A stretch of DNA of 64,000 nucleotides, from contig JAGDYB010000008.1 in the NCBI GenBank assembly GCA_023270055.1, positions 3,438-67,437 of the forward strand, in the 5' to 3' direction. The notes beneath the pieces are model-generated. The model ran no database searches and was not told where the DNA came from. It saw nothing but the letters and a program-made list of their open reading frames with translations. Both the position numbers and the translations under genes were made by a program. The stretch comes from Candidatus Micrarchaeota archaeon. Its GTDB lineage: Archaea; Micrarchaeota; Micrarchaeia; Micrarchaeales; CABMGC01. Shown piece by piece: positions 31,996 to 47,722 of this stretch. How positions within the stretch are numbered: the stretch's first letter is position 1; every line of letters begins with the position of its first letter.

Positions 31996-33459
31996 ATGGA
32001 AGGCAACGTTGGCATACAGGACATAGTCGCCAGGAGGGGCATATACTATCAGGCGTTCGGCATATACCACGAGGTTGGCGGCTTCTTCGACTACGGGCCG
32101 GTTGGCGTAAGAATAAGAAGGAACATAGAATCGGCATGGCGCAATATATTCGTTGAGCAGCTCGGCGCCGTGGAAATAGAAACGACAACAATAATGCCAG
32201 AGCAAGTATTCAAGGCAAGCGGGCACCTCAGCACGTTCGCCGATCCGATAACAAAGTGCTTGAAGTGCGGCACACACTACCGAGCAGACAAGCTGCTTGA
32301 GGAATACTACGAAAAGAAGGGCGAGAGCAAGAAGGAGGAGGAGATAAAGAAGATGGACATAGGGCAGCTTGACGGCGAAATAAGGAAAAACGGCATAAAG
32401 TGCGAGAAATGCGGCGGAGAGCTTTCAAAGGTGGAAAGATTCAATTTGATGTTTCAGACGCAGATAGGTCCTCTTACTACGGACAAGGGCTATTTAAGGC
32501 CCGAGACTGCGCAGGGTATGTTCGTGGATTTCAAGTACCTGTTCCGCATATCGGGGGCCAAGCTGCCTATGGCGGTGGCGCAGGTGGGGAAAGTGTACAG
32601 GAACGAGATATCCCCGCGACAGCAGCTGGTCCGGCTCAGGGAGTTCTCGCAGATGGAAACTGAGCTTTTCTTCGATCCAGAGGAGATGCCAGGCGAGGTG
32701 GGCGAAATTTCTGTGGACGCAATACTGGGCGCAAAGCTCAATTTCGAAGAGGCAGGGAAGGAGGAGGTAAGGGAAAGGAGCATAGGCGAGCTGCTTGAAG
32801 CAGGCAAAATACCAAACAAAATGCTTGCGCTGCTGATATACCTTGAAAAGAGGCTTGTTGACACTTTGGGCATTCCAACGGAGCTTTGCAGGTTCAGGGA
32901 GTTGGAGAAGGAGGAATTGCCGCACTATTCGAAGGGCAACATAGACTTGGAGGTCAAGACATCATACGGCTACATAGAAATCGCGGGAAATGCCTACAGG
33001 ACTGATTACGACCTTTCGTCGCACGCGAAGCTTTCCGGCACCGACCTTTCGGTGACGAGCGGCAGCAAGAAGCTCGTACCGCACGTTGCAGAGGCCAGTA
33101 TCGGAATAGACAGGACGCTGTTCGCGCTTCTTGACAGCTCACTTCAGACTGGAGACAGGGATTGGGCTTGGCTCAGGCTGAGCAGCGCCGCAGCACCATA
33201 CCAGTACGCAATCTTCCCGCTCCAGAAGGACGAGAAGCTGGAAGCAAAGGCGCGCGAGATATATAAAAAGCTTGCGGCTCGCGGTTTGCAGGCATACTAT
33301 TCAAGCTCCGGCAGCATAGGAAAAAGGTATGCGAGGGCAGACGAGATAGGCGTGCCTTCGTGCATGACCATAGACTACCAAACGCTGGAAGATGGCACAG
33401 TTACGGTAAGAAACAGGGACACGATGAAGCAGGAGCGCGTTGAGGAAGGCAAGCTGTGA
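31996..33459 (+). CDS. glyS: Glycine--tRNA ligase (archaeal/eukaryotic dimeric type)
   Basis: ARRGIYYQAFGIYHEVGGFFDYGPVG, LRPETAQG and FSQMETELF class II motifs. 487 aa. Confidence 0.92.
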   Translation: MEGNVGIQDIVARRGIYYQAFGIYHEVGGFFDYGPVGVRIRRNIESAWRNIFVEQLGAVEIETTTIMPEQVFKASGHLSTFADPITKCLKCGTHYRADKLLEEYYEKKGESKKEEEIKKMDIGQLDGEIRKNGIKCEKCGGELSKVERFNLMFQTQIGPLTTDKGYLRPETAQGMFVDFKYLFRISGAKLPMAVAQVGKVYRNEISPRQQLVRLREFSQMETELFFDPEEMPGEVGEISVDAILGAKLNFEEAGKEEVRERSIGELLEAGKIPNKMLALLIYLEKRLVDTLGIPTELCRFRELEKEELPHYSKGNIDLEVKTSYGYIEIAGNAYRTDYDLSSHAKLSGTDLSVTSGSKKLVPHVAEASIGIDRTLFALLDSSLQTGDRDWAWLRLSSAAAPYQYAIFPLQKDEKLEAKAREIYKKLAARGLQAYYSSSGSIGKRYARADEIGVPSCMTIDYQTLEDGTVTVRNRDTMKQERVEEGKL

Positions 33460-34376
33460 GTCATGGCATGGATGGGGAAAAATACATAAGCGTGCGCGAC
33501 TTCAGCTTGAAGTATACGGTGGAGAGCGCACAGCCGCTCACCTTCTACGGCGACATTGAAAGCGGGGGCAATGCCGTTTCGTTTGTCAGCGGAAGCACAA
33601 AGGTTTTTGTGAGGCAGAAGGGAAGAAAACTCTATTTCCGCCGCATTGGTTCGGCGAGTGCCGGCAGCGTGGAGAAGGAGCTGCGCAGAAGGTTCGGCTT
33701 GGATCACGACATGCGGAGAATATACGAAAGCATAGATACAGATCCTTTCATGCACAGCGCAATAGAAAAATATCGCGGCATGCGCGTAACGCTGAACGAC
33801 CCTTGGGAGACTGCGCTGTCGTTCGTGGTATCACAGTTCAACAACGTCAAGCGCATCAGGGGAATAATGAAATGCATGATAAGCAGGTTCGGCGAGCAGG
33901 TGAAGTACGGCACAAGCGGCGTTGCATTCAACAAGTTTCCATCGTACCAAGCGCTTGCGGAGGCGAGCGTGTCAGATCTGATGCGCTGCGGCGCCGGCTT
34001 CAGGGCGAAGTACATAAAAGAGATGGCAGCGGAATTGTCCGCGGGCTTCAGCCTGCGCGAGATTCGCGGAATGAGTTATGAAAGGGCAAAGGAAAGGCTG
34101 ATGGAGCTTAAGGGTATTGGGGACAAAGTGGCCGACTGCATACTGCTCATGGGCTATGGCAAGCTTGAGGCGTTTCCGATAGATACCTGGGTGAAGCGCA
34201 TAGTTGAGCATGTCTATTTCAACGGTGGAAAAAAGAGCGTTAAGGAGATTCATGCTTTTGCGCAGGAGATGTGGGGCAAGCACGCCGGATACGCCCAGCA
34301 GTACCTGTTCTGGCACGGAAGGGAAGCGAAGGTAGGAAAGCGCGGCCAAGCCTCTGTTGCGGCAACAGAAAAATAG
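33456..34376 (+). CDS. ogg: 8-oxoguanine DNA glycosylase / HhH-GPD family (archaeal Ogg-like)
   Basis: HhH-GPD motif LMELKGIGDKVADCILLMGYGKLEAFPIDTWVKR. ATGA-type overlap with glyS. Confidence 0.8.
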   Translation: MSHGMDGEKYISVRDFSLKYTVESAQPLTFYGDIESGGNAVSFVSGSTKVFVRQKGRKLYFRRIGSASAGSVEKELRRRFGLDHDMRRIYESIDTDPFMHSAIEKYRGMRVTLNDPWETALSFVVSQFNNVKRIRGIMKCMISRFGEQVKYGTSGVAFNKFPSYQALAEASVSDLMRCGAGFRAKYIKEMAAELSAGFSLREIRGMSYERAKERLMELKGIGDKVADCILLMGYGKLEAFPIDTWVKRIVEHVYFNGGKKSVKEIHAFAQEMWGKHAGYAQQYLFWHGREAKVGKRGQASVAATEK

Positions 34377-34417
34377 AATAATAATAAAAACTTTAAAACA
34401 AAAATGACACATGAGGT

Positions 34418-34978
34418 GTGGAGGTGCTTGGGGAAATAAACGGGCTTACCGGAAAGATAGCCAAGATGCAGGAAAGGCTTGACAAGGTAATGGAGCTGTC
34501 GAGGGAAGTGGTCAGGCTCAGCGGCGAAGCAATGTCCGCAATACACGCGAAGGACAGCGCAAAGCTGCGCGCAAAGACGAAGGAGCTGGGTGCAAAGATG
34601 AAAAGCCTCAAGGCCGTAGAACGCGGCTTCGAGTACTACTCGCAGGACGCGCACCAGGAGTATGTGGAGCTGATGATGCTTGACAGCATATTGAGCAGCG
34701 GCAGGGTGCCAACAAGCAAGGAGCTGAAGGAAAAGCCCATAGCATACATACTGGGCATGATGGACGTCGTCGGCGAGCTCAAACGAGAGGCGCTTGACGA
34801 GCTCATGAAGGGCAACGTGGAAAAGGCAAAGAGCTACTACGGCTTCATGAAGGAGATATACGACTCGACGCTGCACATACGCTTCGCGAACTCTCTAATG
34901 CCGGGCTTCAGGAGAAAACAGGACACAGCGAGAATACAAATAGAAGGAATAGCGGCGGAGCTCATAAGCAGGCGCTGA
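34418..34978 (+). CDS. Translin-family protein
   Basis: 186 aa, all-helical. The YILGMMDVVGELKREALD motif is typical of translin/TRAX-like proteins. Confidence 0.7.
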   Translation: MEVLGEINGLTGKIAKMQERLDKVMELSREVVRLSGEAMSAIHAKDSAKLRAKTKELGAKMKSLKAVERGFEYYSQDAHQEYVELMMLDSILSSGRVPTSKELKEKPIAYILGMMDVVGELKREALDELMKGNVEKAKSYYGFMKEIYDSTLHIRFANSLMPGFRRKQDTARIQIEGIAAELISRR

Positions 34979-35056
34979 TGAGCGTGCACTGAGCTTCAAT
35001 TGCAGCATTGCTAATATTTAAATACTTTATTATCTCACTATAAGTAGAGTGATGGT

Positions 35057-35629
35057 ATGAAGCTAAGGAAATCAAAAGCGCAAAGCGCTATGGAATATTT
35101 GATGACATACGGCTGGGCAATATTGATAATTGCCGTGGTGCTTGGAGCACTATTCAGCCTCGGCGTGTTCAAGGGAACGGTAGGTTCGCACTGCATTGCT
35201 GTGCCTCCATTCACGTGCCAGACGCCAACAATGACAACTGCCGGTGTGGTTTCAGTGCCAATCGGTGTTGCAACTGAGTCGATAAATGTTTATGCAGCGG
35301 CGTGTTCATCTGCTTCTAGCGGTACAGGCTATCCACTTTATGGCAACATTGGTGTATCTCCAGCAGGAAATAATGCACTGTCTACTGTGGCTCCGTCGCT
35401 AGGTGGAACACCATTACCAACAACACCTTCTGGTCCAGTTGTATTAAATGCTGGAACTATAGAAACATTAATTGTATCTTGCCTTTCTAGCAATACTGCA
35501 TTGGCGGCGACGTCATATCCAATCGGCTCTTCATTCACCGGAACAATCTGGCTGAACTACACAACAGGAACTAGCAGCACACCTATCGTGCAGCCGATAA
35601 CATCTTCGTTCTCAGTAACAGCATCCTGA
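35057..35629 (+). CDS. Type IV pilin-like protein with class III signal peptide
   Basis: MKLRKSKA|QSAMEYLMTYGWAILIIAVVLGALFSL is a textbook archaeal prepilin N-terminus. The mature part is 160 aa, Ser/Thr-rich, with two Cys pairs. Confidence 0.8.
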   Translation: MKLRKSKAQSAMEYLMTYGWAILIIAVVLGALFSLGVFKGTVGSHCIAVPPFTCQTPTMTTAGVVSVPIGVATESINVYAAACSSASSGTGYPLYGNIGVSPAGNNALSTVAPSLGGTPLPTTPSGPVVLNAGTIETLIVSCLSSNTALAATSYPIGSSFTGTIWLNYTTGTSSTPIVQPITSSFSVTAS

Positions 35630-35635
35630 ACAGCA

Positions 35636-35695
35636 GCTTTTCTTTCTTTTATTTTTAATTTTTGCTTCTTGTTCTTTTTAATTAGTTTTTCTGTT
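35636..35695. terminator. Oligo-T rich bidirectional termination region between convergent genes
   Basis: The sequence cttttctttcttttatttttaatttttgcttcttgttctttttaattagtttttctgtttt contains several T5-T6 tracts, the usual archaeal intrinsic termination signal. Confidence 0.5.
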
Positions 35696-35702
35696 TTCCT
35701 AT

Positions 35703-36620
35703 CTACTTGTCTTGTTTCTGCTTTCTCATATCAAGAAGAGTCATAAGTTCATTCGCGTTGAGCAGCGGCTTCCTGAGCCTGTCCGTGTCTTCTGTCGCGA
35801 GCCTTGGGCATGCAGTGTTGACGAATGCGTCTATCTCCATCATGTTGTTAAGGGAGTCAAAGTCGAAGGTGTTTGATACCAGTATTGCAGCTTCGCTTCC
35901 AGCCTTTTCAATCCTTTCCTTCAGCACTTTTGCCAGGTTCAAGTTGTATTGTCCTATCTTCGTACTCACCAGTATGCCAAACCTCTTTGCGTCGAAGCTC
36001 CTCAGGATCTTGCCATTCACCTCCCTCCTGTGCCTTTCCCTGTAATCGTCAAGCCATTCCATCTTGTGTGCAAAGGGCTCTATGGAAAGGAAGGGCTTCG
36101 TTGTCTGGTAAACGGCTCCTAGCGGGTGAAATAGCCCTCCTCCAAAATAGATGAAGCATTCAACTTCCCTGTCTATGCTTGCTGCACTGCCCACGTCGCA
36201 GCCCAGTATCTGCCCGTTGTGCCTGGCAAAGCCATAAGGTCTGCCTATTATAACCTCCTTTCCGTTTTTCTCGTAAAAGTTCTTTATGTCTTCAAGCTGC
36301 GCCACGTGCTGCACCGTTGTGACTATGCCTATTTTCCTGAATTTTTCAATTAGGGGAAGGCTTTCCTTAAGTATCGACAAATCAGCATTTATACTGTATT
36401 CCACATACTCCACGTTGAAATCAATGTGCACGAATTCAGCGTGACCGAAGTGTACTATCTTTTCTGCCCCTATTTTTTTGGCCTCTTCAACAGCTATGTC
36501 GCACGCACCAAAAGTCGGGGAAGCTGAAATGTATACCTCGTCTCCCTTTTCTTCAAGCTTTTTCGCATACTCCAAGCCGTACTGTTTCAAGCCTTCAGGG
36601 AATTGTAGTAGCACTTTCAT
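35703..36620 (-). CDS. dph2: Diphthamide synthase subunit Dph2 (2-(3-amino-3-carboxypropyl)histidine synthase)
   Basis: MKVLLQFPEGLKQYGLEYAKKLEEKGDEVYISASPTFGACD... and a conserved Cys triad context. 305 aa. Confidence 0.88.
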   Translation of the reverse strand: MKVLLQFPEGLKQYGLEYAKKLEEKGDEVYISASPTFGACDIAVEEAKKIGAEKIVHFGHAEFVHIDFNVEYVEYSINADLSILKESLPLIEKFRKIGIVTTVQHVAQLEDIKNFYEKNGKEVIIGRPYGFARHNGQILGCDVGSAASIDREVECFIYFGGGLFHPLGAVYQTTKPFLSIEPFAHKMEWLDDYRERHRREVNGKILRSFDAKRFGILVSTKIGQYNLNLAKVLKERIEKAGSEAAILVSNTFDFDSLNNMMEIDAFVNTACPRLATEDTDRLRKPLLNANELMTLLDMRKQKQDK

Positions 36621-36624
36621 GGGA

Positions 36625-37167
36625 TCATGCGGGGCTTTTGGCCTGCTGCAGCTCCTCGACCACTATTTTGTAGGTGCCTGACAGCTTTGAGGAAGCCCTG
36701 CGCATTGCCTCCTTTACTACGTTTACCTTGTCCTTAGAGCTTTTCATCTCAAATACCGTTTGCCCCTTGGATACTCTTGCAGCGACCGAAACGGGCTTGC
36801 CGAATGCCAGGGTCATACCCTGGGAAATTCTGTCTGCGCCTGCACCCGTAGCCATCTTCTTTTCTCTTATCACGTTGTGCGGATAAGTTATTACCTTGAA
36901 TAAGTATGCGTTCGGTATTTCCCTTTCCAAGTACTTGTTTGCAGCCTCTCTAGCAGCCTCAAGTGCGTTGGATCTGAGCTGTATGTCGTAGTTTGATACA
37001 AGCCTCGCCTTTATATCATAGCTTGGCTTGTCAACCCCCATTTTGAATATAAGAAGGCTCGTGTGCGGCAGTGCCTTTACATAACTCTTCCTAGGCTTTC
37101 TCCTCGAATACCTGCTCCATGCCTGGCTGTTTACCTTTCTTACGCTCCTTGCTGGCCTCAATTTCAT
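36625..37167 (-). CDS. rpl10e: 50S ribosomal protein L10e (uL16)
   Basis: MKLRPARSVRKVNSQAWSRYSRRKPRKSYVKALP... is the conserved L10e N-terminus, with ATG at 37167. The tracked ORF's upstream 81 codons (to 37410) read through intergenic DNA. Confidence 0.9.
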   Translation of the reverse strand: MKLRPARSVRKVNSQAWSRYSRRKPRKSYVKALPHTSLLIFKMGVDKPSYDIKARLVSNYDIQLRSNALEAAREAANKYLEREIPNAYLFKVITYPHNVIREKKMATGAGADRISQGMTLAFGKPVSVAARVSKGQTVFEMKSSKDKVNVVKEAMRRASSKLSGTYKIVVEELQQAKSPA

Positions 37168-37278
37168 AATAACACCGTAAACTCGGGACAACGAGATTAT
37201 ACTTTTATTTTGTATAATAAGATTTATATAACTGACGTGCCCTTTAAAGTCCAGAAAATTGACATCTACCATAAAAAC

Positions 37279-37352
37279 ATGCAGGATTTTCGTATTCTCG
37301 GCATGCCCTGGCTTTATCAAGAATAAGAAACTGTCAAATACCAACTTGCTAT
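37279..37352. repeat. Copy A of an ~80-bp imperfect direct repeat (partner at 37785-37867)
   Basis: A: gcaggattttcgtattctcggcatgccctggctttatcaagaataagaaactgtcaaataccaacttgct. B: gcaagatttcgtatttgatattcttggcatgctcgaagtttatcgagaataagaaattgtcaaatgtcaatttgct. About 80% identity with one 7-nt indel, aligned by eye. Confidence 0.75.
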
Positions 37353-37700
37353 TCACTTTCTGCGAATTGAAAAATTGGCGCCCTCTACGCTTTGCAGCGC
37401 ATCGGCCCACACCTTAACCCTGGCTTCAGCAATCCGTCTTGGCGCGTCGCTGAGCATGGCAAGCCCCCTCTCGTTAAGACGGTAACTGTTGTTGCGTTTT
37501 TCAACAAAAAGTGCAAGCGGCAGGCGGTTCAATTGTGAGTAGAATTCATCGATGCTGTCCCTGAGAAATTTGATACCAACACCAGCGTAATCCGCTATTT
37601 CATCTGCTGTCCTCGTGCCGTGCCCTATATATAGTATTATTTTGGCAAGCAACGGCGCCACAGCATTAGCATCGTCTATTGCGCTACACTCTTTATCCAC
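37353..37700 (-). CDS. Small winged-helix (wHTH) DNA-binding protein, divergent from the T4SS-like operon
   Basis: 115 aa. ILYIGHGTRTADEIADYAGVGIKFLRDSIDEF...NNSYRLNERGLAML fits an HTH plus wing pattern. Confidence 0.6.
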   Translation of the reverse strand: MDKECSAIDDANAVAPLLAKIILYIGHGTRTADEIADYAGVGIKFLRDSIDEFYSQLNRLPLALFVEKRNNSYRLNERGLAMLSDAPRRIAEARVKVWADALQSVEGANFSIRRK

Positions 37701-37912: not shown

Positions 37913-37966
37913 AAAATATTTATATATTTATTTAAGTATATAATTTTGTATCAAAGTATAAGGTGA
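37913..37966 (+). promoter_or_regulatory. Putative promoter and SD of the T4SS-like operon
   Basis: The A/T-rich stretch aaaatatttatatatttatttaagtatataattttgta has several TATA-like boxes. AGGTGA (37961-37966) lies 4 nt before ATG 37971. Confidence 0.5.
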
Positions 37967-37970
37967 ATAC

Positions 37971-38357
37971 ATGTGGGGAAGCAGCAATAAAAGCAGAATT
38001 GTTGCAGTAATAGAGCGCGCGGCGTTGAAATCTTTGATTGTAATTGGCCTATTTGGGGCTAGAAACGCATATGCATCAGGTGTGGTGTCGCTAGATATTG
38101 TCGGAACTATATCCTACATACAGCAGATTCTCATGCATATAGGTCCGGCACTGAGTGCCACACTATTCATAACTGCTGGCATCTTCTATGCGATAGGGCA
38201 GCTTCTGCCACCAGACAAGAGGGCAAATTTCCATACAACCTCTATAAACATAATAATAGGCGCGGTCACCATAGCGGTGCTTTCGGTTGCATCCGGCGGC
38301 CTTGCTGTCGCCTCATCGCATCTCCTTGCAAATGCGTCCTCAAACTCGCTGACGTGA
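37971..38357 (+). CDS. VirB2/TrbC (CedA1/TedC)-like conjugative-type pilin candidate
   Basis: 128 aa. Sec-type signal peptide ending ARNAYA|SG. The mature ~90 aa form two hydrophobic helices (IGPALSATLFITAGIFYAIGQLL and INIIIGAVTIAVLSVASGGLAVA) joined by a basic loop, PPDKRANFH. This is the helix-loop-helix layout of T4SS pilins. Confidence 0.6.
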   Translation: MWGSSNKSRIVAVIERAALKSLIVIGLFGARNAYASGVVSLDIVGTISYIQQILMHIGPALSATLFITAGIFYAIGQLLPPDKRANFHTTSINIIIGAVTIAVLSVASGGLAVASSHLLANASSNSLT

Positions 38358-38358
38358 T

Positions 38359-39396
38359 TTGTTGCCAAGCATTTACCCATTTGGCACATATGGCTTTGGC
38401 CTGTCAATAGATATAATAGGTATAATGATGGGCATAAGCGGCATTATCCTTGGATTCGGTTACGCGTTTGACGACAAAAAACTAAAGGAGTTTGGAAGAA
38501 GTGAACTCTACCAGTCAATGATAAACGTGGCGCTGGTTGTATTTCTTCTCTCGCTATTCATGCCGGGCGGTATTGTCACTGGCGTAATAAGCACGTTGGT
38601 AGGGAAGAGTCCCGCCACATTCAGCTGTCCCGAATACATGTCAGGAAACAGCGCAATATGCCTTGCATATTCATATCTTGCCGGTCCCGGCGGCTACACA
38701 TTCAACGGTATAGCGTATCAGTCGCTTTTTTCAATCATAATGGAAGTTTTCCTAGCAGTTACCGCTTTGATTGTAATACTCGGCGGCATCTCTTCGCTTT
38801 CGCTAAGTTTCCTATTCGCGAAGATTAACTTTGCGCCCATGGTAACTCCTTTTCTTCATGAAATGCAGTACATGCTTGACATAGTAACGTCAATGGCGAT
38901 AAGCGTGCTTGTACAGGCATCAATACTTTCGTTTGTAGCGATAGCTGCTGTTGCGGTAATACTTCCAACCGGCATAGTGCTGCGTGCATTCTACCCGTCA
39001 AGAAAGCTTGGCGGCTTTTTGATAGCATCTGCAATAGGCCTTTATGTAGTTCTACCCCTCTCATATCTGTTCAACATATATATGCTTTATTCATATACAA
39101 GCGGCCTAAACGAGACAAGCATGCAGGCGACTGTTGCGAGCGCTAGTTCTGCGGAGAATCTTTTGCTTAACGCAACAAACGCATCGTCTTCGGTAGTGCA
39201 TCTTGTATCTTCAACAAACTCGCTGCTCAGTTCAATCTCATACCTGCTGGATTCACTTTTTTCCTTTGTTGCCAACTTCATAGTAAAGACATTTATTCTT
39301 CCGATATTTAGCCTCATACTCACAGGCATATCGATAAGGGAGCTTGCCGCAATGCTTGGTTCAGAGGCGTTTTTTGGCAAATTCAAAATATTGTAG
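38359..39396 (+). CDS. Polytopic (6-7 TM) membrane protein, VirB6/TrbL/CedA-like by position and topology
   Basis: 345 aa with about 7 hydrophobic helices and a Cys-containing external loop (FSCPEYMSGNSAICLAY). It starts 1 nt after the pilin stop. The start codon is uncertain (TTG 38359 or ATG 38427). Confidence 0.55.
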   Translation: MLPSIYPFGTYGFGLSIDIIGIMMGISGIILGFGYAFDDKKLKEFGRSELYQSMINVALVVFLLSLFMPGGIVTGVISTLVGKSPATFSCPEYMSGNSAICLAYSYLAGPGGYTFNGIAYQSLFSIIMEVFLAVTALIVILGGISSLSLSFLFAKINFAPMVTPFLHEMQYMLDIVTSMAISVLVQASILSFVAIAAVAVILPTGIVLRAFYPSRKLGGFLIASAIGLYVVLPLSYLFNIYMLYSYTSGLNETSMQATVASASSAENLLLNATNASSSVVHLVSSTNSLLSSISYLLDSLFSFVANFIVKTFILPIFSLILTGISIRELAAMLGSEAFFGKFKIL

Positions 39397-39404
39397 GGGG
39401 ATTC

Positions 39405-40118
39405 ATGATAGGAGAATATCTAGCATGCAAATCGATAGGAATCTACATAACATACTCGCTGATGGGAATATTCCTCATACTTTCCGTGTTCACCCTTAAT
39501 GCTTATGTGATATCACTTGGTGTTGTTGCTTGCCTTGTCTCGCTTGCATACCTGAAAATGCACAATGTGATAGAAGCAATATTCTTGAAAAAGTCCAGGA
39601 TCACAGTTTCCAACGGTGCATACATACTAAATTCTGCTTTGGACGCGGCGGTTAAGAAGACTGAAGACGGCTACGAGGCAATTTCTGCAGCCGTGCTAGA
39701 GCCAGGAGGTGAGATAAGGAACAGCGAAGGTATAACCGACATAATAAACAAGTCAAAATCCCCATTCGAATTTAGCGTTGTGGTCAGCAGCCTCAACGCA
39801 AAGAAGTTCATAGAGCATATAGAGACAAGGCGAAACATTGCCGAAATAAACCTTTCAAAAGTCGGTGGTGACAGCAGAAAAAGCAACGCCATAAGGAGGG
39901 AAATAGAGATGCTTGACGGCGAGATAGCATCAATAGCAAAGGGCGGCGCGCCTATGGACATAACAATACGGCTCAAGGTATTTGGCCATGGCTACAGCAT
40001 AGCCGAGGCGTCTGCCAACGCGAAGAGAAGCATGGAAGGCATGCTTTCGCTGTTCGCATCATCGCTAGGCGCAGGCTACAGCGTGCTCAAGGGGGAAGAT
40101 TTGCTGGGGGTTGTATAG
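39405..40118 (+). CDS. 2-TM (VirB3-like hairpin) protein with soluble domain, possible N-terminal half of a split VirB4-like ATPase
   Basis: 237 aa. Two N-terminal TM helices, then a ~170-aa soluble domain. GGGGGA SD. It ends 7 nt before (or overlaps) the ATPase ORF. Confidence 0.55.
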   Translation: MIGEYLACKSIGIYITYSLMGIFLILSVFTLNAYVISLGVVACLVSLAYLKMHNVIEAIFLKKSRITVSNGAYILNSALDAAVKKTEDGYEAISAAVLEPGGEIRNSEGITDIINKSKSPFEFSVVVSSLNAKKFIEHIETRRNIAEINLSKVGGDSRKSNAIRREIEMLDGEIASIAKGGAPMDITIRLKVFGHGYSIAEASANAKRSMEGMLSLFASSLGAGYSVLKGEDLLGVV

Positions 40119-40125
40119 TGGTTAT

Positions 40126-41250
40126 ATGAGTATCAAGTTGACTCCGGCAAGCGTATCAAAGCTTATATGCATGCCATACTCAGACGATCCTTCAGCAGAA
40201 GCTGCACTTAAGCTCGCTTCATCATGCATATACATCGGAAGGACGCTGCATAGGTCAATACCTTATTTTCTAGATTTCAGCCAGCTCATAAATCCGCATG
40301 TATTCGCGATTGGCATGACCGGCAGCGGCAAGAGCTATCTAATAAGGTCGCTGGCGCTGAAGCTTGGCATTTTTATGAATGTGGCTGTGCTTATAATAGA
40401 CTTTACCGGCGAGTATGCCGAGCTATCACAGTTCGGAAACAACGCTGGAGAAGGGGACATAGAGGTAGTGCTGGAAGAGACACATCAGGGCGTAATCTAT
40501 GTGGACCTTTCTGAATATGGTGAAGCAAAGAAGGTGGAGAGTGCAAAGAGGATCCTAAGCGCTATAATAGTGCGCATGCGCGCCAGCAGGGCTGATTCAG
40601 AGCTGAAGTTCTTCACAGTAATAGATGAGGCGTGGAAGCTTCTGCTGGGAAGCGGGCTCGTGGAAACGCTGGTTAGGGAGGGAAGAAAATATGGATATGG
40701 TGTGATAATCGCTTCCCAGATGCTTGGCGATGCAGGCGCCGGTATCGCCTCCAACATAGGCACGTTATTCGTGTTCAGGGTCAACGATTCGTCATCGCTG
40801 CAGAAACTTTCGGATAACTATGCCCTGGACGAGAAGAAAACGTCTGCGATCAAAGATTTGAACGTAGGTTCATGCCTTGTAATCCAAGTTTTCAAAAGGG
40901 AAGGTATGGCAAGGTTTTTCATAGAAAGGGTCAGCGGCGTAGAATATTTGAATAGAATAACAATTATCGTGGGTGGAAAAATGGAAGTAGAGGTCGGCGA
41001 GGAAAAATTCAACCAGATAATGGCGGAGCTCGGAATATCTGGCGCTTCGCTTGCAGAGCTCAAGGGGCTCATGGTTGGAGGCACGATAAGGTTACCTGCA
41101 CTTTTGGCGTGGCTAATATTGCATGGCGCGGATAGGGAGCTCGTGTTGTACAAATTCAGGCGTTTGGGGCTTAGCGACGATACGCTTGCGGACAATTATG
41201 CAAACGCATTGGTGGAAGTGGTCAGTGATGGGCGAAACAAAAGAACGTGA
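40126..41250 (+). CDS. VirB4/TrbE/HerA-superfamily P-loop ATPase (ATPase 1)
   Basis: Walker A PHVFAIGMTGSGKSYLIRS, Walker B FFTVIDEAWKLL (a DEAW signature common in VirB4/TrbE) and REGRKYGYGVIIASQ. An alternative TTG start at 40111 overlaps the upstream ORF by 8 nt. Confidence 0.75.
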   Translation: MSIKLTPASVSKLICMPYSDDPSAEAALKLASSCIYIGRTLHRSIPYFLDFSQLINPHVFAIGMTGSGKSYLIRSLALKLGIFMNVAVLIIDFTGEYAELSQFGNNAGEGDIEVVLEETHQGVIYVDLSEYGEAKKVESAKRILSAIIVRMRASRADSELKFFTVIDEAWKLLLGSGLVETLVREGRKYGYGVIIASQMLGDAGAGIASNIGTLFVFRVNDSSSLQKLSDNYALDEKKTSAIKDLNVGSCLVIQVFKREGMARFFIERVSGVEYLNRITIIVGGKMEVEVGEEKFNQIMAELGISGASLAELKGLMVGGTIRLPALLAWLILHGADRELVLYKFRRLGLSDDTLADNYANALVEVVSDGRNKRT

Positions 41251-41914
41251 AAAGCTTGGTTTGCACATGTCAGTGCCTATAAGTGCAAGGCTTACCTCAA
41301 CATTCGGAGCAGTAAAACACTCCCTTTCCGCATATCCTGGGGTTTCATTGGTTCAAGATGGAACTACCCTAAGATATCAGCTCAACGCTAGCGAAGAATC
41401 GAGTACATATTACGTGGAGCTGGCAAGAGAGTATATCCTTATCGAGGTGTTTTCCGATACGTCGCCCATATACCTAATGGAATCCTGTCTGGTGAAGCTT
41501 CTTTCTGTATGCTCTATGCTGCGCGGCGAATATGTGTTCAAGATCGAGAGCCTTTTCCCCTACATTATCTATGCGCTTGAATCTCAGAAGATTGACGCGT
41601 TGGCAGCATCAGTTGCAGCAGCTCGTCAAGATTACCGTTATACTGATATAATCTTGGCAAAGAGAATAATGGCGCTTTCATTCAGCATAGGAGAGAAAGA
41701 CAAGGCAATATCTTTGCTTGAGGATACCGTTGCACAGCTCACTGCAGATATGATAATAATGCTTGCCGCCAGTGGCGCCGTTGATGGCACTTCGCTGCAC
41801 GCAAAGTATGGTATAAGCATCGATACACTGAAGCGCTCTCTTGAGATTATACGTTCAGCTGGTTACAGGATCATTTACAAGCCTGGTGGCAAGTTTGTAC
41901 TGGCGAGGCAATGA
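41228..41914 (+). CDS. Cytoplasmic hypothetical protein with C-terminal wHTH-like segment (operon member)
   Basis: The start at 41228 is preceded by GGAAGTGG and overlaps ATPase 1 by 23 nt. The C-terminus ISIDTLKRSLEIIRSAGYRIIYKPGGKFVL looks like a winged helix. Confidence 0.55.
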   Translation: MGETKEREKLGLHMSVPISARLTSTFGAVKHSLSAYPGVSLVQDGTTLRYQLNASEESSTYYVELAREYILIEVFSDTSPIYLMESCLVKLLSVCSMLRGEYVFKIESLFPYIIYALESQKIDALAASVAAARQDYRYTDIILAKRIMALSFSIGEKDKAISLLEDTVAQLTADMIIMLAASGAVDGTSLHAKYGISIDTLKRSLEIIRSAGYRIIYKPGGKFVLARQ

Positions 41915-42546
41915 ATCCGGTCGCAAGCTTGTTTTCGCAGGAAATTCCAATACTAATCGGGGCAGCTATATTCGTTCTTGTGGCAAAGTTTAGGTTTGAA
42001 AGGCGAAAAATAAGCATAGAAGTTAGTGAGGAGGCATTAGCTATTAACGATGTTGTTTCATCGCATGAGTGTCAAATACCTGCAGCACAGCGTACAATGC
42101 CTCGTAGCCTCCCTGTGGATTTTCGCGAAATTTTTCCTGTTTTGAACGACAATGCAAGGTTCGTACCTTTGCTTTGCGGAGAATATGAAAAGTACTTTTA
42201 CTGGCACGGATTTATCGGCAACGGCGATTCACTAAAACGCGAAGCCATAATGTTGCATATCTACGAAAGGCTGATTACCGAAGGCAAGCTTCGAAAAGGC
42301 GATTTTAAGTGGCTTAACAGACGCAGTATATATCGCATCGGATTCAGCGAACTTGGCATGCTTCCCATATTTATGGTTTACAAACTACATAGCATGGAAT
42401 CAGTAGTCAAGCCCAACACTATCAATATCCTAATGTCTCAAGACGATACCAGCAAGCTTCTTCTTTCGCTCCTCTCATTTTCTCCCGTCTCAGGCATGCT
42501 TCTTTCATATTTGTCATTGCAAAACTTAAGCGTGCAGGTGGTCTGA
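41911..42546 (+). CDS. Single-pass membrane protein (operon member)
   Basis: ATGA overlap with the upstream gene. N-terminal TM helix IPILIGAAIFVLVAKF. 211 aa. No recognisable domain. Confidence 0.55.
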   Translation: MNPVASLFSQEIPILIGAAIFVLVAKFRFERRKISIEVSEEALAINDVVSSHECQIPAAQRTMPRSLPVDFREIFPVLNDNARFVPLLCGEYEKYFYWHGFIGNGDSLKREAIMLHIYERLITEGKLRKGDFKWLNRRSIYRIGFSELGMLPIFMVYKLHSMESVVKPNTINILMSQDDTSKLLLSLLSFSPVSGMLLSYLSLQNLSVQVV

Positions 42547-42749
42547 TGATTCAGCTGCTTTTCGATTTGGCAAGGGAAGTTGCCGCAATAAGCGGCGCGA
42601 TTGAGGGAATGCTGCTCAGCATATCGATGCTTAAAAGAATATTCTGGCGCGCTTCACCTGCAGTACAGCCACTCCTTCCAAGCATCTACAGGGCGTTCGG
42701 GCTACTGTTCGCCATATCAGCAGCAGTGGTGATAATATGGATGACATGA
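42546..42749 (+). CDS. Small (67 aa) membrane protein (operon member)
   Basis: GGTGG SD and start overlapping the previous stop (TGATG). C-terminal TM helix AFGLLFAISAAVVIIW. Confidence 0.45.
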   Translation: MIQLLFDLAREVAAISGAIEGMLLSISMLKRIFWRASPAVQPLLPSIYRAFGLLFAISAAVVIIWMT

Positions 42750-43012
42750 CTATTATTTACAAGCGGCTAAACAATGGCAACGAGCATGCGGCAAAGATCT
42801 TGCTTTCGGTATCGCTGTCAGCGGCAGTTTCGACAGTGATTGAAACATTGCTAGGTCATGCCTCGCCCAAGGCATTCCTATTGCTGTGCCTGGTTTTTGG
42901 TTTTATGCTATATAGACGTAGGTCGGCGCAGGACGTGCCGCTTGGCAATCTATTGCTAATGTCAGTCGCAGTTGTGACAATACTTTTTGTTGAGGCAGTT
43001 GTGTGCGCATAA
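42737..43012 (+). CDS. Small (91 aa) 2-3 TM membrane protein (operon member)
   Basis: GGTGA SD. Hydrophobic helices ILLSVSLSAAVSTVIETLL, FLLLCLVFGFMLY and LLLMSVAVVTILFVEAVV. Confidence 0.5.
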   Translation: MDDMTIIYKRLNNGNEHAAKILLSVSLSAAVSTVIETLLGHASPKAFLLLCLVFGFMLYRRRSAQDVPLGNLLLMSVAVVTILFVEAVVCA

Positions 43013-43022
43013 AGGAGATCAA

Positions 43023-45254
43023 ATGCAAAAAATTTTCGAAATGATAGAAGTGCCGGTGGATTTGGACTATGAGATGCTGCTGAACTCGTTTTTGGGGAGG
43101 CAGTTTATAATGCACCACGATTTGTCAAGCTCAAAGACATACGTTGTTGCTGATTCGGATTGGCCAGAAATAGCCCGCAATGCCATAGCGGGGCTAACAA
43201 CTGTGGCGGCGAGCGGCAGCTTTAAGCTAAATAACCCTCTGCTGGCAGTAGTCTATGTTCCGTCAGCATCGCCAAGTGCAAAGGCTCAAGAGTCAGGGCA
43301 ACTGCTTGGTGCATTGTACAATCTGTTTTCAGGTACTGACGCACAAGTTTCGATCGCTTTTGCTCCGGGAAACCTTGAGGATGCAAGGCGCATAAAGGGT
43401 AGAGTTGAGGAGCTGCTCAGCAGGATAGCGACAAGGGCAACAAAAAGCTACTCAAATAAAGCAACAATTTCATCTTCAACCTCGCTGCAATCAGATATCT
43501 ATTATAATTCAGATGACAAGGTTTTGTTCTCGAACATGCTAGATAACCTTAACAGCATAATCGCAATGAATGGAACCTCTTATAAGGCGCTTATTGTTCT
43601 TTCCGGCGAATACGAGCAGATACTTTCATACATAAAATCAAAGCTGCTTGTTATGGAAATGCATAAGATAAACGTCAGCAGTTTGGAAGAGCTTGCAGAT
43701 ATCGCTTGCAGCATAGAGGCAATGCCATTGAACCATTCTATATTATCGCGTCTGTTTGTCTTTTCAGAACGCATATTGCGCATCGCAAGATCCAATGTCC
43801 AAGTACCGCGCCAGTCTGGCAACATAGATCTTGGCGTGTTCCTGGACAGAGCCGTATCCCCATCAGGTACCCATGTCATGCTAGACGCATCAACCTTAAA
43901 TCTTGGCACTATAGTAACGGGCATGCCAGGCACGGGCAAGACAACATTGGTAATGTCAATGCTGAGCCAACTAAATGCACTCGCTGAAAAACCGGTAATG
44001 GCAATAATATCGCCTACCCACGAGTGGTCTGCATTTGCCAATGCGAATGGGTTGAACTTCTTTCAGCTTTATGAATCTAAACTTCCAGTGAACTTTTTTA
44101 CCTGCTATGACGCGGCGTCGAAGGAGAAATACTATGAGAATCTTGCAATGCTTCTTGCAAACGCATCGGTCGCCGGCCCATATAAAAATTCGCTTGAGAA
44201 AAGCTTGCTTGCAGCCTTCAGGAAAGTGTATTCCCTCACATTGAATCCTGATCCTGTGGAAATGTATTATACTATAGAGGAAACGGTAATAGAACAACAT
44301 GCAACAAAGACAAATGTTGGGGTGAAATATACAAAACACGGCGAAAACATAAGAGCTGCACTTGAGAACTTGCGCCTGCTTCTGTTCCGGCCTGAGTTTG
44401 CCACAAAAGATGGCATCAACATGATGTCATTTCTGAAAGGGGGTGCAGTCTTCGATCTTTCCAAAGTGAGCAACAGTATGAAGCAGTTCTACTACTCTTT
44501 GATACTTAATATTGTATACGCATTCTCTGAAAATTTTGACGAAAATGCGGATAACGAAAGGAAGCTGAAGCTCGTGATAGTGCTTGATGAGGCGCAGGAA
44601 GTGATAAATGCCGATGAGACATCCGCAGTTGTTCTCGATTTGAAGCAGAGGATACAGGATTTTAGAAAAAAGGGCATAGGTATAGTGCTGATAACGCACA
44701 ATCCAATTGACATAAGTGGTAGTATACGCAGGGTATGTCAGACAAAAATATATTTTAGGCAAAGTGCAGACATGGTGAAATATTCCGCTACCGATTTAGG
44801 ATTTATTGAGCAGGATTCAAGTACCATGAGCCTTCTTAGGGGTTTAGGCGAGCGAACTTTTGTACTTGATTATGTTAGGCGTGATGACGTCACTGGCTAT
44901 GCATCTCCTGCCGGCCCAATTTTTGTAAGATCAAAAGAATATGCACTTCCTGCTGGTGAGGCTCAGCCAACTAGCCTTAATTGCAATCTGCACGGCGATG
45001 TTTGCGATTGCAAAATTTACATCCGAGATCGGGAAAAGGCGCCGCTCGCACTCGCAGAAGTTAAGTTGTTCTATTTGGGTGAGCTTGTGTCAGAGTCGAA
45101 AACCGATGAGGCTGGAAAAGTGGTTTTCAATGGGTTGCTGAGAGGCAAGAAATACTCACTGCAATTGCCCGCCAAAAAGAAAAAGGATACAAGAATCTTC
45201 CAATTCAGCGCTCAGGACAACATAGATATAACCGCTGACGTACCTAAACAATGA
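43023..45254 (+). CDS. VirB4/CedB/HerA-type ATPase (ATPase 2) with C-terminal Cys cluster and beta-sandwich-like domain
   Basis: ATG 43023 is preceded by AAAGGAG. A ~290-aa N-domain is followed by LNLGTIVTGMPGTGKTTLVMS (Walker A), KLVIVLDEAQEV (Walker B) and GIGIVLITHNP. The C-terminal ~90 aa, CNLHGDVCDCKIYIRDREKAPLALAEVKLFYLGELVSESKTDEAGKVVFNGLLRGKKYSLQLP, resemble a carboxypeptidase-regulatory-like fold. Confidence 0.75.
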   Translation: MQKIFEMIEVPVDLDYEMLLNSFLGRQFIMHHDLSSSKTYVVADSDWPEIARNAIAGLTTVAASGSFKLNNPLLAVVYVPSASPSAKAQESGQLLGALYNLFSGTDAQVSIAFAPGNLEDARRIKGRVEELLSRIATRATKSYSNKATISSSTSLQSDIYYNSDDKVLFSNMLDNLNSIIAMNGTSYKALIVLSGEYEQILSYIKSKLLVMEMHKINVSSLEELADIACSIEAMPLNHSILSRLFVFSERILRIARSNVQVPRQSGNIDLGVFLDRAVSPSGTHVMLDASTLNLGTIVTGMPGTGKTTLVMSMLSQLNALAEKPVMAIISPTHEWSAFANANGLNFFQLYESKLPVNFFTCYDAASKEKYYENLAMLLANASVAGPYKNSLEKSLLAAFRKVYSLTLNPDPVEMYYTIEETVIEQHATKTNVGVKYTKHGENIRAALENLRLLLFRPEFATKDGINMMSFLKGGAVFDLSKVSNSMKQFYYSLILNIVYAFSENFDENADNERKLKLVIVLDEAQEVINADETSAVVLDLKQRIQDFRKKGIGIVLITHNPIDISGSIRRVCQTKIYFRQSADMVKYSATDLGFIEQDSSTMSLLRGLGERTFVLDYVRRDDVTGYASPAGPIFVRSKEYALPAGEAQPTSLNCNLHGDVCDCKIYIRDREKAPLALAEVKLFYLGELVSESKTDEAGKVVFNGLLRGKKYSLQLPAKKKKDTRIFQFSAQDNIDITADVPKQ

Positions 45255-46473: not shown

Positions 46474-46525
46474 AATATATACTTATTCTTTATTATATTT
46501 ATTTTTTTGTATATAAATTGATTTC

Positions 46526-47599: not shown

Positions 47600-47601
47600 A
47601 T

Positions 47602-47675: not shown

Positions 47676-47722
47676 CTTTTTTCGCTCTTCTTGTGTAGTA
47701 GCAGGCGGAGTGGGCGAATAAG

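Follow-up and report, generated by a model that had tools for sequence, protein, structure and literature searches.

A candidate VirB2/TrbC-type pilin precursor encoded at the start of a conserved chromosomal operon of Micrarchaeota

DPANN archaea attach to hosts and exchange material with them, and cryo-ET shows intercellular filaments and tubes. The stretch of Micrarchaeota DNA analysed here (64,000 nucleotides, referred to as the window) raises the question of whether a small membrane protein encoded at positions 37971..38357 of the plus strand could be the subunit of a pilus, as suggested by an original prediction that called it a candidate T-pilin. The answer that we consider probable, while well short of certain, is that this protein is a VirB2/TrbC-type pilin precursor, and that its gene opens a vertically inherited chromosomal, T4SS-derived operon that occurs across Micrarchaeota (DPANN) and is the best conserved of the operon's members.

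The predicted prepilin and its upstream region

The open reading frame at 37971..38357 (+) begins with ATG and encodes 128 residues plus a stop codon, and its translation is exactly the protein sequence that had been quoted for it. The gene is real and under selection, with homologues in 87 clusters at E <= 1e-23 and a relative encoded in 150 species-representative genomes, and a family HMM search found no paralogues in the window. The fold is predicted to consist of a leader helix followed by a helical hairpin. In the AF2 model, built on an alignment of 45 sequences (mean pLDDT 82.7; 89-98 over residues 50-110), a leader helix at residues 6-34 and a low-confidence linker precede two long helices at residues 43-78 and 81-127, the latter with a pLDDT of 86-98. 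Kyte-Doolittle hydropathy agrees, with a short N-terminal hydrophobic run at residues 21-29, long runs at about 53-79 and 87-116 and a hydrophilic dip centred on 76-92 between the long runs, and the expectation of two long hydrophobic helices separated by a short loop is thus borne out. In the mature pilin, helix alpha-1 (residues 43-78; 38097..38204, +) carries the residues L54, G58, P59, L65, F66, A69, G70, Y73, G76 and Q77, which are conserved among the 45 orthologues, while helix alpha-2 and the C-terminal tail (residues 81-127; 38211..38351, +) reach their hydropathy maximum at residues 90-110.

The predicted leader peptide (residues 1-35; 37971..38075, +) ends in AYA and is delimited by the AF2 helix and by a heuristic reading of the n/h/c pattern. 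The AYA↓S site at residues 33-36, with predicted cleavage before Ser36, conforms to the AxA type that had been proposed. Across the 45 orthologues the leader is variable in sequence and the mature part highly conserved, and the leaders keep a basic n-region, an h-region of 10-14 residues and, commonly, small residues at -3 and -1; removal of the leader by signal peptidase I is predicted from these sequence features.

The loop between the helices, PPDKRANFH (residues 80-88; 38208..38234, +), lies within a motif, GQxLPPDK(R/K)ANFHT, that is near-invariant in the 45 orthologues. G76, Q77, P80, K83, A85 and H88 are the same in all 45, and residue 84 is Arg or Lys in every one. The original prediction described this loop as positively charged, which is correct, although the charge is mild: K83 and R84 set against D82 give a net charge of only +1, to which His88 may be added. 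The C-terminal tail contains an N-x-S/T sequon, N121-A-S (38331..38339, +), of which the Asn is invariant in the 45 sequences, and a sequon of this kind occurs in the C-terminal region of 78 out of 88 sequences of the family. Since Lys and Arg are confined to the loop and the sequon lies in the C-terminal tail, a topology with both termini outside fits the protein. Asn121 would accordingly be a candidate N-glycosylation site on the outer face, and the loop of the membrane-embedded form is likely to be cytoplasmic by the positive-inside rule and by analogy with solved conjugative pili (PMC9905601).

As had been proposed, the gene stands first in its operon: upstream lies an AT-rich intergenic region of 270 bp followed by a divergent gene, and the next gene downstream begins 1 nt past the pilin stop codon. 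An AT-rich block, TATATATTTATTTAAGTATATAATTTTG (37914..37948, +), is found about 25-55 nt before the start codon and, as read from the sequence, may be an archaeal TATA/BRE promoter region. A Shine-Dalgarno-like AGGTGA (37961..37966, +), which matches the anti-SD consensus GGAGGTGATC over 6 nt, precedes the ATG by 4 nt. The motif is therefore present as predicted, although it is not uniquely the strongest of the operon, as the GGTGAT in front of the gene for a 91-aa protein is a match of equal length.

Similarity to T4SS pilin families

On its own, the window protein matches the Pfam family T4SS_pilin (PF18895) with 18.8 bits (E=0.0017), below the gathering cut-off of 26.6, in an alignment of residues 43-103 onto positions 5-63 of the 71 in the profile; TrbC/VirB2 (PF04956) gives no match at E<=1. 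The orthologues carry the assignment further. At E<=0.01, PF18895 is matched by 41 of the 45 and PF04956 by 17, and two orthologues, each sharing 62% identity with the window protein, score above the PF18895 cut-off of 26.6 (P0002 with 28.3 bits and P0005 with 29.4 bits). The matches to either family always span helix 1, the loop and helix 2, and that to TrbC includes the leader as well, aligning from there onward. When five orthologues were read backwards, which keeps composition and hairpin symmetry, none matched PF18895 or PF04956 at E<=1, compared with five out of five in the forward direction, and the matches to the pilin profiles are therefore not driven by composition. A profile search of 1.84 billion representatives returned 71 relatives of the pilin. 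The 57 that rank below the closest members of the family were scanned in turn, with 25 matching T4SS_pilin and 19 matching TrbC, and any other family being matched at most twice.

Direct comparison with Agrobacterium gave a negative to weak outcome (here, and for VirB4 and VirB6 below, the reference is plasmid pTiC58). A profile of the remote relatives aligned with the VirB2 profile in hhalign over 77 columns in register (probability 39%, P 3e-4), against 14-15 columns and P values of 5e-3 to 6e-3 for reversed controls, whereas the profile of the pilin family itself was negative against the VirB2-clade profile (probability 0.3%), both alignments in that comparison being narrow (Neff 2.6 and 3.3). 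Searched against the sequences of the PDB, the family profile had no match at E<=10, even though T-, F-, CedA1 and TedC pilins have been solved. Simple hairpins are poorly discriminated by fold and profile comparison tools. The full-length model retrieved generic helical hairpins and coiled coils from the PDB in Foldseek (best E=0.65) and no solved pilin; Foldseek is uninformative for so simple a fold, and the attached leader helix probably hurt the search. The proposed T-pilin identity, in the sense of a VirB2/TrbC-type (T4SS) pilin, is thus largely supported by the sequence matches of the orthologues and their controls, together with the predicted architecture and the linkage to the genes described below, with the window protein itself remaining sub-threshold.

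Operon layout and genomic setting

The pilin gene is followed on the same strand by eight further genes, for several of which the start codon is uncertain. Public names for the proteins are uninformative ('hypothetical protein', 'membrane protein' and a spurious 'riboflavin transporter FmnP'). Directly downstream lies the gene for a polytopic membrane protein of 345 aa (38359..39396, +), which is a candidate VirB6/CedA/TedA-like platform or channel. The model (pLDDT 82.7, pTM 0.77) has about six long helices and a Cys-containing, beta-rich insert. The protein has no match in Pfam, NCBIfam, the PDB (profile search) or Foldseek, and hhalign against VirB6 of pTiC58 found nothing; the VirB6-like role is consequently a positional and functional candidacy, and homology to VirB6 finds no support in sequence or fold searches. 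Weak similarity to the pilin is seen in the N-terminal hairpin of the 345-aa protein (P 2.8e-4, probability 41%). A remote match of 343 aa (P0243) was considered as an intermediate between pilin and VirB6 and rejected, as it is unrelated to the 345-aa protein.

The next gene (39405..40118, +) encodes a 237-aa protein with an N-terminal two-TM hairpin and a soluble domain, which has no family or PDB matches. It overlaps by 8 nt with the gene for a 379-aa ATPase of the HerA/VirB4/FtsK superfamily (40111..41250, +), a candidate motor for assembly and translocation. Judged by its size and position relative to the domain layout of CedB (PMC11868833), the 237-aa protein may represent the TM and N-terminal domain detached from an ATPase like CedB/VirB4 or, alternatively, an adaptor resembling VirB3. 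The 379-aa ATPase itself matches AAA_10 (52.4 bits), DUF87 (52.6 bits) and TrwB_AAD_bind (23.9 bits) in Pfam, all above cut-off, and in NCBIfam its best match is CedB (2.5e-19), followed by TraC, TcpF, CedD and HerA; its PDB matches are of the HerA type. BLASTP comparisons of this protein with VirB4 of pTiC58 and with the second ATPase of the operon were not significant. That second member of the HerA/VirB4 superfamily, a 755-aa protein with a long N-terminal domain (42987..45254, +), matches HerA_C, AAA_22 and AAA in Pfam, with a weak C-terminal beta-sandwich signal, HerA-like structures in the PDB, and CedB (2e-7) and CedD (3.3e-7) in NCBIfam, and is a possible CedD-like or coupling-type partner. 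Models of HerA, mad8 and phage terminases fit both ATPases about as well as those of CedB and VirB4, and for this reason neither is placed in VirB4 rather than HerA.

Between the two ATPase genes lie four smaller ones. A protein of about 228 aa (41228..41914, +; start uncertain, the longest ORF beginning at 41123) has a weak C-terminal HTH (HTH_11, E=5e-4, below the Pfam cut-off) and orthologues of 220-226 aa. It is followed by a 211-aa protein with one N-terminal TM segment (41911..42546, +), which has no family matches in Pfam or NCBIfam and whose position is taken by a gene of similar size in four other loci (L001, L007, L008 and L009). A small two-TM protein of 67 aa (42546..42749, +), with genes for 56-69 aa at its position in other loci, and a small membrane protein of 91 aa (42737..43012, +), which has an 85-aa counterpart in L007, complete the set. 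Pfam and NCBIfam recognised no relaxase or other DNA-processing gene in the operon, and no homologues of VirB1, VirB3, VirB5 or VirB7-VirB11 were recognised in it.

The arrangement was followed through 80 Micrarchaeota species genomes, with only loci that are long enough counted for each gene. The ~345-aa polytopic protein adjoins the pilin gene in 76 of 76 eligible species loci and a HerA/VirB4-superfamily ATPase lies downstream in 70 of 70, and the core gene order is the same in every species genome examined. Other members are more variable, with the 237-aa protein found in 57 of 74 loci, the 228-aa protein in 46 of 70 and the 755-aa ATPase in 38 of 63. The pilin is the most conserved protein of the operon, with a median identity of 57% as compared with 41, 35, 30, 28 and 37% for others, which is expected of a subunit packed in a polymer.

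The operon is flanked by housekeeping genes (L10e, diphthamide synthase, ProRS, OGG, Nre, prolidase and Sua5), from which it follows that the system is chromosomal and not plasmid-borne, and its GC content is the same as that of the rest of the window. Both observations favour a chromosomal system that has been domesticated, as in Ced and Ted (PMC9905601). A mobile element is rejected on account of the same flanks and window-like GC, together with the lack of an integrase in the ten flanking ORFs scanned (window positions 31996-37410 and 45244-49947). Readings of the locus as a defence system or a provirus are rejected as well: the pilin and the other membrane proteins match nothing in PADLOC or PHROGs, and the chromosomal synteny is phylum-wide. 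In these two collections the ATPases match generic HerA, mad8, DndH and terminase models, and the 228-aa protein has one marginal WYL match (E 0.007).

Proposed mechanism, alternatives and related systems

In the proposed mechanism the prepilin would be inserted into the cytoplasmic membrane, and type I signal peptidase would then cut after AYA and remove the 35-residue leader. The mature hairpin of ~93 residues would have both termini outside and its invariant PPDK(R/K)ANFH loop in the cytoplasm, with Asn121 in the outward-facing tail probably N-glycosylated. The 345-aa neighbour would act as a VirB6/CedA-like platform, while the HerA/VirB4-superfamily ATPase(s) would pull the pilin out of the membrane, probably together with membrane lipid, for polymerisation into a hollow helical pilus with a lumen lined by the basic loop. 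In forming filaments, exposing its loop to the lumen and binding lipid, the pilin would follow the pili of known structure, namely the T-, F-, CedA1 and TedC pili (PMC9905601). The cargo would most likely be DNA, transferred from cell to cell between conspecifics or between host and symbiont, by analogy with Ced and Ted; other cargo moving to or from the host would be the alternative.

A true VirB2-superfamily homologue might build no extended pilus at all and remain close to the membrane, as a subunit of a short stalk or channel in the translocon. Such a role is assumed for the VirB2-like proteins of Patescibacteria and of monoderm bacteria, in which conjugative pili have not been observed. 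The best Pfam match being to T4SS_pilin rather than to TrbC/VirB2 would suit such a role, as PF18895 is one of the two profiles used for finding Patescibacteria VirB2-like proteins (PMC12102498). According to the same paper, the T4SS classes of Gram-positive bacteria are devoid of major pilin genes, and it contains no report of an observed pilus (PMC12102498); the literature searched gave no report of a pilus of this kind in Micrarchaeota. However, CedA1 and TedC, the two archaeal relatives studied, both build long lipid-containing pili (PMC9905601), and the strong conservation of the pilin and its place as the first gene after an AT-rich, promoter-like region suit an abundant structural subunit, while the conserved outward-facing sequon suggests exposure at the surface. 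A stalk or channel subunit is on balance somewhat unlikely.

It is much harder to see the protein as an unrelated two-helix membrane protein whose pilin matches stem from hydrophobic composition, for instance an accessory of a HerA-type ATPase in defence or DNA repair. The sub-threshold Pfam score of the window protein, the PDB and Foldseek searches that returned no pilin, the ATPases, whose matches to HerA defence models and mad8 are as strong as those to CedB, and the 345-aa neighbour that showed no VirB6 homology in the comparisons run would all be compatible with this explanation. It is made improbable by the reversed controls, by the convergence of 41 of the 45 orthologues, two of them above cut-off, on the same two related pilin families, and by the remote relatives, which match those families and essentially nothing else; moreover, the non-ATPase proteins of the operon have no PADLOC match, and Pfam, NCBIfam and PADLOC detected no nuclease domain in it, of the NurA type or otherwise. 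The idea of a rotary-ATPase proteolipid (c/K subunit), or of another hairpin that translocates ions in a similar way, is effectively refuted. ATP-synthase c-subunits are the best compact Foldseek matches (target-normalised TM-score 0.62-0.70, rmsd about 3 A, E > 1), yet none of the 45 orthologues matches ATP-synt_C in Pfam, helix 2 has no conserved carboxylate (Asp/Glu), ATP-synthase genes are absent nearby, and the gene encodes a predicted cleavable leader and is linked to a HerA/VirB4-type ATPase operon.

With a VirB2/TrbC-type pilin as the preferred identity, the Ted system of Thermoproteales (Pyrobaculum calidifontis; PMC9905601) offers a close parallel, being likewise archaeal and chromosomal. 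Its pilin TedC is small and has a leader, predicted to be cut by signal peptidase I at AVA↓QA (PMC9905601) where the Micrarchaeota protein has AYA↓S, followed by a helical hairpin. In both systems the pilin gene is clustered with those for a polytopic protein (VirB6/CedA-like in Ted) and an ATPase of the HerA/VirB4 superfamily, and no relaxase is recognised in either. Unlike in Ted, the first Micrarchaeota ATPase is short (379 aa), looks more like HerA/CedB than like VirB4 and is preceded by the separate 237-aa TM protein, and the operon contains a second ATPase of 755 aa and four to five further conserved small proteins; its host lineage is DPANN and not Thermoproteota.

The Ced system of Sulfolobales and Desulfurococcales (PMC9905601, PMC11868833, PMC11823120) is similarly a domesticated T4SS-like machine. 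It too combines a hairpin pilin of small size with further small membrane proteins, a polytopic protein (CedA in Ced) and two HerA/VirB4-like ATPases, in this case CedB and CedD. The N-terminal hairpin of the 345-aa neighbour bears a weak resemblance to the Micrarchaeota pilin profile, as is reported for CedA and CedA1. In contrast to the pilin of Micrarchaeota with its predicted cleavable leader, CedA1 is reported to be unprocessed (PMC9905601), and the Ced genes are scattered whereas those of Micrarchaeota form one operon. The 379-aa ATPase scores 69.3 bits and the 755-aa ATPase 30 bits against the CedB model (equivalog cut-off 700), and the two reach 34 and 29 bits against that of CedD (cut-off 600); at 69 bits against a cut-off of 700 the 379-aa protein is not a CedB orthologue. 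The pilin and the 345-aa protein have no NCBIfam match to the Ced membrane components. Between the components of Ced and those of Ted, too, there is no sequence similarity that can be recognised (PMC9905601).

The Micrarchaeota pilin shares a long leader, two hydrophobic helices and a short basic loop with VirB2, TrbC and TraA (PF04956, PF18895), and, like the Patescibacteria T4SS (PMC12102498), it belongs to a chromosomally encoded system without a relaxase in an ultrasmall organism that depends on a host. It differs from the bacterial VirB2 systems in that its host is an archaeon, which has only one membrane and whose lipids are ether-linked, in the presence of one pilin gene per operon instead of arrays, and in the mature pilin, which at ~93 aa is longer than VirB2 and bears the conserved C-terminal N-x-S/T sequon. 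The literature searched held no description of a T4SS- or Ced-like system in Micrarchaeota or other DPANN archaea. The VirB4/TraG-like domains of nanohaloarchaea sit in giant SPEARE-type proteins and are a different thing.

A more far-reaching proposal, which we regard as speculative and unlikely, is that the operon specifies a, or even the, conduit between Micrarchaeota and their hosts, a glycosylated, lipid-containing T4SS-type pilus that takes up DNA, nucleotides or other cytoplasmic material from Thermoplasmatales or Sulfolobales. If this is true, the operon would account in molecular terms for the 'pili-like' or 'filamentous' connections that cryo-ET has revealed between cells (PMC4110969, PMC11329633), Ced and Ted would be joined by a third archaeal T4SS lineage of independent domestication, and the Patescibacteria T4SS would have an archaeal counterpart. 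At the more general level, with its recognisable conjugative-type pilin, polytopic protein and HerA/VirB4-type ATPases, the operon is a concrete and testable candidate for exchange between DPANN archaea and their hosts, and may help to explain how Micrarchaeota exchange DNA or other material with their partners. It would extend the domesticated T4SS-derived machines of archaea from Thermoproteota (Ced, Ted) to DPANN, in parallel with the T4SS reported across the ultrasmall bacterial symbionts of the Patescibacteria, and it is relevant both to the question of whether T4SS machinery represents an adaptation common to episymbionts in general and to the early history of conjugation pili.

The predicted hairpin and its conservation

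The candidate T-pilin is encoded by an ORF at positions 37971-38357 (+) that has an ATG start and specifies 128 aa, the translation being identical to the sequence of the original prediction. A search of 5.8 billion proteins returns 87 clusters of homologues (E 1e-70 to 1e-23), of which those with a named source derive almost always from Micrarchaeota or Micrarchaeia MAGs and carry the label 'hypothetical protein'. When each GTDB species is represented by a single genome, 150 genomes encode a relative, and the best 80 of these are all Micrarchaeota with the exception of a few that are probably mislabelled. The pilin is thus a real and strongly conserved Micrarchaeota gene.

A hydropathy scan reveals a short hydrophobic core within the first 30 residues followed by two long hydrophobic segments that are parted by a hydrophilic dip at about residues 76-92. 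AlphaFold2, run with a 45-sequence alignment, predicts helices at residues 6-34, 43-78 and 81-127 with a mean pLDDT of 82.7, which reaches 89-98 in the hairpin and is about 54 in the linker (31-40). Scan and model bear out the proposal of two long hydrophobic segments on either side of a short loop. In the orthologue alignment the mature part (residues 36-128) is highly conserved and the loop motif GQxLPPDK[RK]ANFHT is near-invariant. The leader is variable in sequence and retains a basic n-region followed by a 10-14-residue hydrophobic core; the residues at -3 and -1 are small, as in the ends VHA-S, SFA-A, SYA-G and AYA-S (hyphens mark the end of the leader). This is the pattern of a cleaved signal peptide, and cleavage is predicted.

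According to the positive-inside rule the mature hairpin would be oriented N-out/C-out, with the loop containing K83 and R84 in the cytoplasm. Two features support this orientation: the Lys and Arg residues of the mature pilin are confined to the loop, and the C-terminal tail of 78 of the 88 family sequences carries an N-x-S/T sequon that coincides with the invariant Asn121 or lies close to it. A subclade with the sequence LLANSVSTT lacks the C-terminal sequon; in its place, NSS or NGS occurs near the mature N-terminus in six of the nine full-length members.

Relationship to the VirB2 and T4SS pilin families

The window protein itself matches the T4SS_pilin family PF18895 below threshold (18.8 bits against a curated cut-off of 26.6 bits, E=0.0017), with residues 43-103 aligned to positions 5-63 of the 71-position profile. 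Two orthologues that are each 62% identical to it, P0002 (28.3 bits) and P0005 (29.4 bits), exceed the cut-off. In a Pfam scan 41 of 45 orthologues match PF18895 and 17 match PF04956 (TrbC/VirB2), while any other family is matched by five at most; the TrbC matches extend from the leader through the end of helix 2 (profile positions ~8-91 of 98). Reversed sequences, which preserve both composition and the symmetric hairpin pattern, serve as a test for a compositional artefact: none of five matches either pilin family at E<=1, whereas the same five orthologues read forward all match both. A profile search that uses no index, run over 1.84 billion representatives, yields 71 proteins at E<=1e-3. 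Among the 57 scanned once the closest family members are set aside, 25 match PF18895 and 19 match PF04956, and each other family appears only once or twice. Because orthologues and remote relatives alike match the pilin families and the reversed controls are negative, the family very probably belongs to the VirB2/T4SS-pilin superfamily, and with the family-wide matches and the predicted hairpin the pilin interpretation is well supported in homology and architecture. For some orthologues the protein collection already has an automatic label of PF18895 or PF04956, which implies that the homology can be found by routine annotation.

Comparisons with solved or authentic pilins lend the assignment little or no support. 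The family profile has no match among all PDB sequences, and a Foldseek search of the PDB with the pilin model returns generic hairpins only, including ATP-synthase c-subunits with target-normalised TM-scores of 0.62-0.70 but E>1. Against a VirB2-clade alignment built from authentic pTiC58 VirB2 the Micrarchaeota family is negative in hhalign (probability 0.3%). For the broader profile of the remote relatives, an in-register alignment to VirB2 spans 77 columns, starting at the AxAQ cleavage region and reaching the C-terminus (P 3.1e-4, probability 39%). Reversed controls align over 14-15 columns with P about 5e-3 to 6e-3. The alignment exceeds background but is weak.

Several remote relatives have unusual architectures or surroundings. 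Three are fusions: P0199 and P0203, of 278 and 295 aa, each contain two pilin domains in tandem, and P0243 (L090:29-1060, 343 aa) joins a pilin-like N-terminus to a GLUG-motif region. P0243 is unrelated to the 345-aa protein of the operon. The pilin-like genes L003:9001-9342 and L004:6949-7407, on other archaeal contigs that probably represent other DPANN lineages, are solitary and lack an adjacent ATPase operon. Both lie 3' of a GatB_N (GatE-like) gene, immediately in L004 and with one 107-aa ORF between in L003.

The operon and its chromosomal setting

The gene upstream of the pilin is divergent, the intergenic region is 270 bp long and the next gene begins 1 nt past the pilin stop, so that the pilin is the first gene of its operon as proposed. 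An AT-rich block (37914-37948) lies in the intergenic region and an SD-like AGGTGA (37961-37966, +) lies 4 nt 5' of the ATG. The description of this motif as the strongest of the operon is only partly right, since GGTGAT, the match of the 91-aa gene, is just as long. The longest ORF of the neighbouring L10e gene (36625-37410, -, 261 aa, GTG start) overlaps a 115-aa divergent ORF (37353-37700) and is probably over-extended at its N-terminus, since its Pfam match begins at residue 101. The 115-aa ORF has no family match, and the gene tables of the contig loci L001, L007, L008 and L009 show no conservation of it ahead of the operon.

All downstream genes of the operon are on the same strand. They encode a polytopic membrane protein of 345 aa; a protein of 237 aa that has a two-TM hairpin at its N-terminus and whose gene overlaps the next by 8 nt; a 379-aa ATPase that matches AAA_10, DUF87 and TrwB_AAD_bind above cut-off; proteins of ~228 and 211 aa; a 67-aa and a 91-aa small membrane protein; and a second ATPase of that superfamily, 755 aa long, which matches CedB and CedD weakly. 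Scored by tblastn on 80 species loci, counting as eligible those with enough downstream sequence, the operon has an invariant core: the pilin is present in 80/80 (median identity 57%, the most conserved protein), the 345-aa protein in 76/76 (41%; three of these matches overlap the end of the pilin match) and the 379-aa ATPase in 70/70 (35%). The 237-aa protein is found in 57/74 (30%), the 228-aa protein in 46/70 (28%) and the 755-aa ATPase in 38/63 (37%).

Gene order and sizes are the same in L001, L007, L008 and L009, where the upstream neighbours differ and comprise TCA-cycle genes, UbiA, a beta-CASP nuclease or a type IV pilus cluster. In the window it is housekeeping genes that flank the operon (L10e, diphthamide synthase, ProRS, OGG, Nre, M24 peptidase and Sua5), and the GC content equals that of the remaining window. 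The system is chromosomal and vertically inherited and does not represent a plasmid or integrated element. Nre, an archaeal DNA-repair-associated protein, is encoded directly 3' of the operon, often with an M24 prolidase gene, in the window (45244-47599), in L007 and L008 and in 11 of 59 species loci, a chromosomal neighbourhood conserved in several distant species. The link of Nre to DNA repair could be relevant to a DNA-exchange system or could be incidental. The type IV pilus/TFF cluster of one Micrarchaeota species (L007:3247-8956; one T2SSE ATPase and two T2SSF platform genes) is divergent and lies ~1 kb upstream of the pilin operon, past two small unannotated ORFs, an arrangement that recalls the cooperation of Ups pili with the Ced system in Sulfolobales. 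Elsewhere in the window, Rfam tRNA matches at 62665-62807 (143 nt, probably with an intron inside) and 12577-12633 (partial, model positions 8-63) are not called by ARAGORN and may represent intron-containing or split archaeal tRNA genes.

The best NCBIfam match of the 379-aa ATPase is CedB (2.5e-19), followed by TraC, TcpF, CedD, HerA and VirB4. Because the PDB matches of both ATPases are HerA-type, and because the scores for CedB are close to those for the PADLOC models HerA and mad8 and for a PHROG terminase model, they cannot be assigned to VirB4 over HerA. CedB and CedD have a TM+NTD+ATPase layout (PMC11868833), which the 237-aa and 379-aa pair resembles in size and order, with the CedB match starting at about position 247 of 590; the two may represent a 'split ATPase'. 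The C-terminus of the 755-aa ATPase (42987-45254) gives weak beta-sandwich signals (residues ~681-749, bMG3 and SpaA prealbumin-like), which is odd for a protein without a predicted TM segment as such domains are usually extracellular.

The 345-aa protein (38359-39396) is modelled confidently (pTM 0.77) and matches neither VirB6 nor any other protein in sequence or fold. The sole hint for this protein is a match of the remote-pilin profile to its N-terminal hairpin (residues 18-95; P 2.8e-4, probability 41%; reversed controls 0.04-0.09), which is no more than suggestive. The same kind of relation has been reported for CedA1/CedA and VirB2/VirB6 (PMC9905601). A beta-rich insert between helices contains Cys101, which is invariant, and Cys90, which is nearly so, and the two probably form an extracellular disulfide; residues 251-276 constitute a Ser/Asn-rich loop of low confidence.

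Known systems, the proposed pilus and symbiosis

The closest known systems are Ted, Ced and the T4SS of Patescibacteria. Ted shares the archaeal chromosomal setting and a pilin processed by SPase I (predicted here), and Ced likewise combines additional small membrane proteins with two ATPases of the HerA/VirB4-like type, but its pilin is reportedly not processed. The Patescibacteria systems are chromosomal, have VirB2-like proteins detected with PF18895 and PF04956, and in most clusters lack a relaxase (PMC12102498). The Micrarchaeota system is not a Ced orthologue, because NCBIfam equivalog scores are at least tenfold under the cut-off for Ced and the membrane components have no match. Among some 8.3 million articles and preprints searched, none was found to describe a VirB2-like pilin in Micrarchaeota or a system there that resembles a T4SS, Ced or Ted; the Micrarchaeota and DPANN papers checked make no mention of symbiont pili or secretion genes, and the Ced/Ted paper makes none of DPANN.

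By reference to the T-, F-, CedA1 and TedC pili, for which structures are solved (PMC9905601), the pilin would polymerise with lipid into a hollow tube with the loop lining the lumen, and both termini would be on the outside of such a VirB2-type pilus. The actual formation of a pilus is plausible and somewhat favoured. By analogy with Ced and Ted, DNA would be the default cargo; no relaxase or other DNA-processing gene was recognised.

Cryo-ET has revealed that ARMAN/Micrarchaeota are linked to Thermoplasmatales by connections of pili-like and filamentous appearance (PMC4110969). Between Metallosphaera and the micrarchaeon ARM-1 it has revealed proteinaceous tubes 6.7 nm wide, which the authors ascribe to the host, with a barrel-like docking structure in the symbiont envelope (PMC11329633). 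It is unlikely that the operon is the symbiosis conduit itself. A T4SS-type operon that is present phylum-wide in such small genomes is nevertheless an obvious candidate participant in the connections between symbiont and host.
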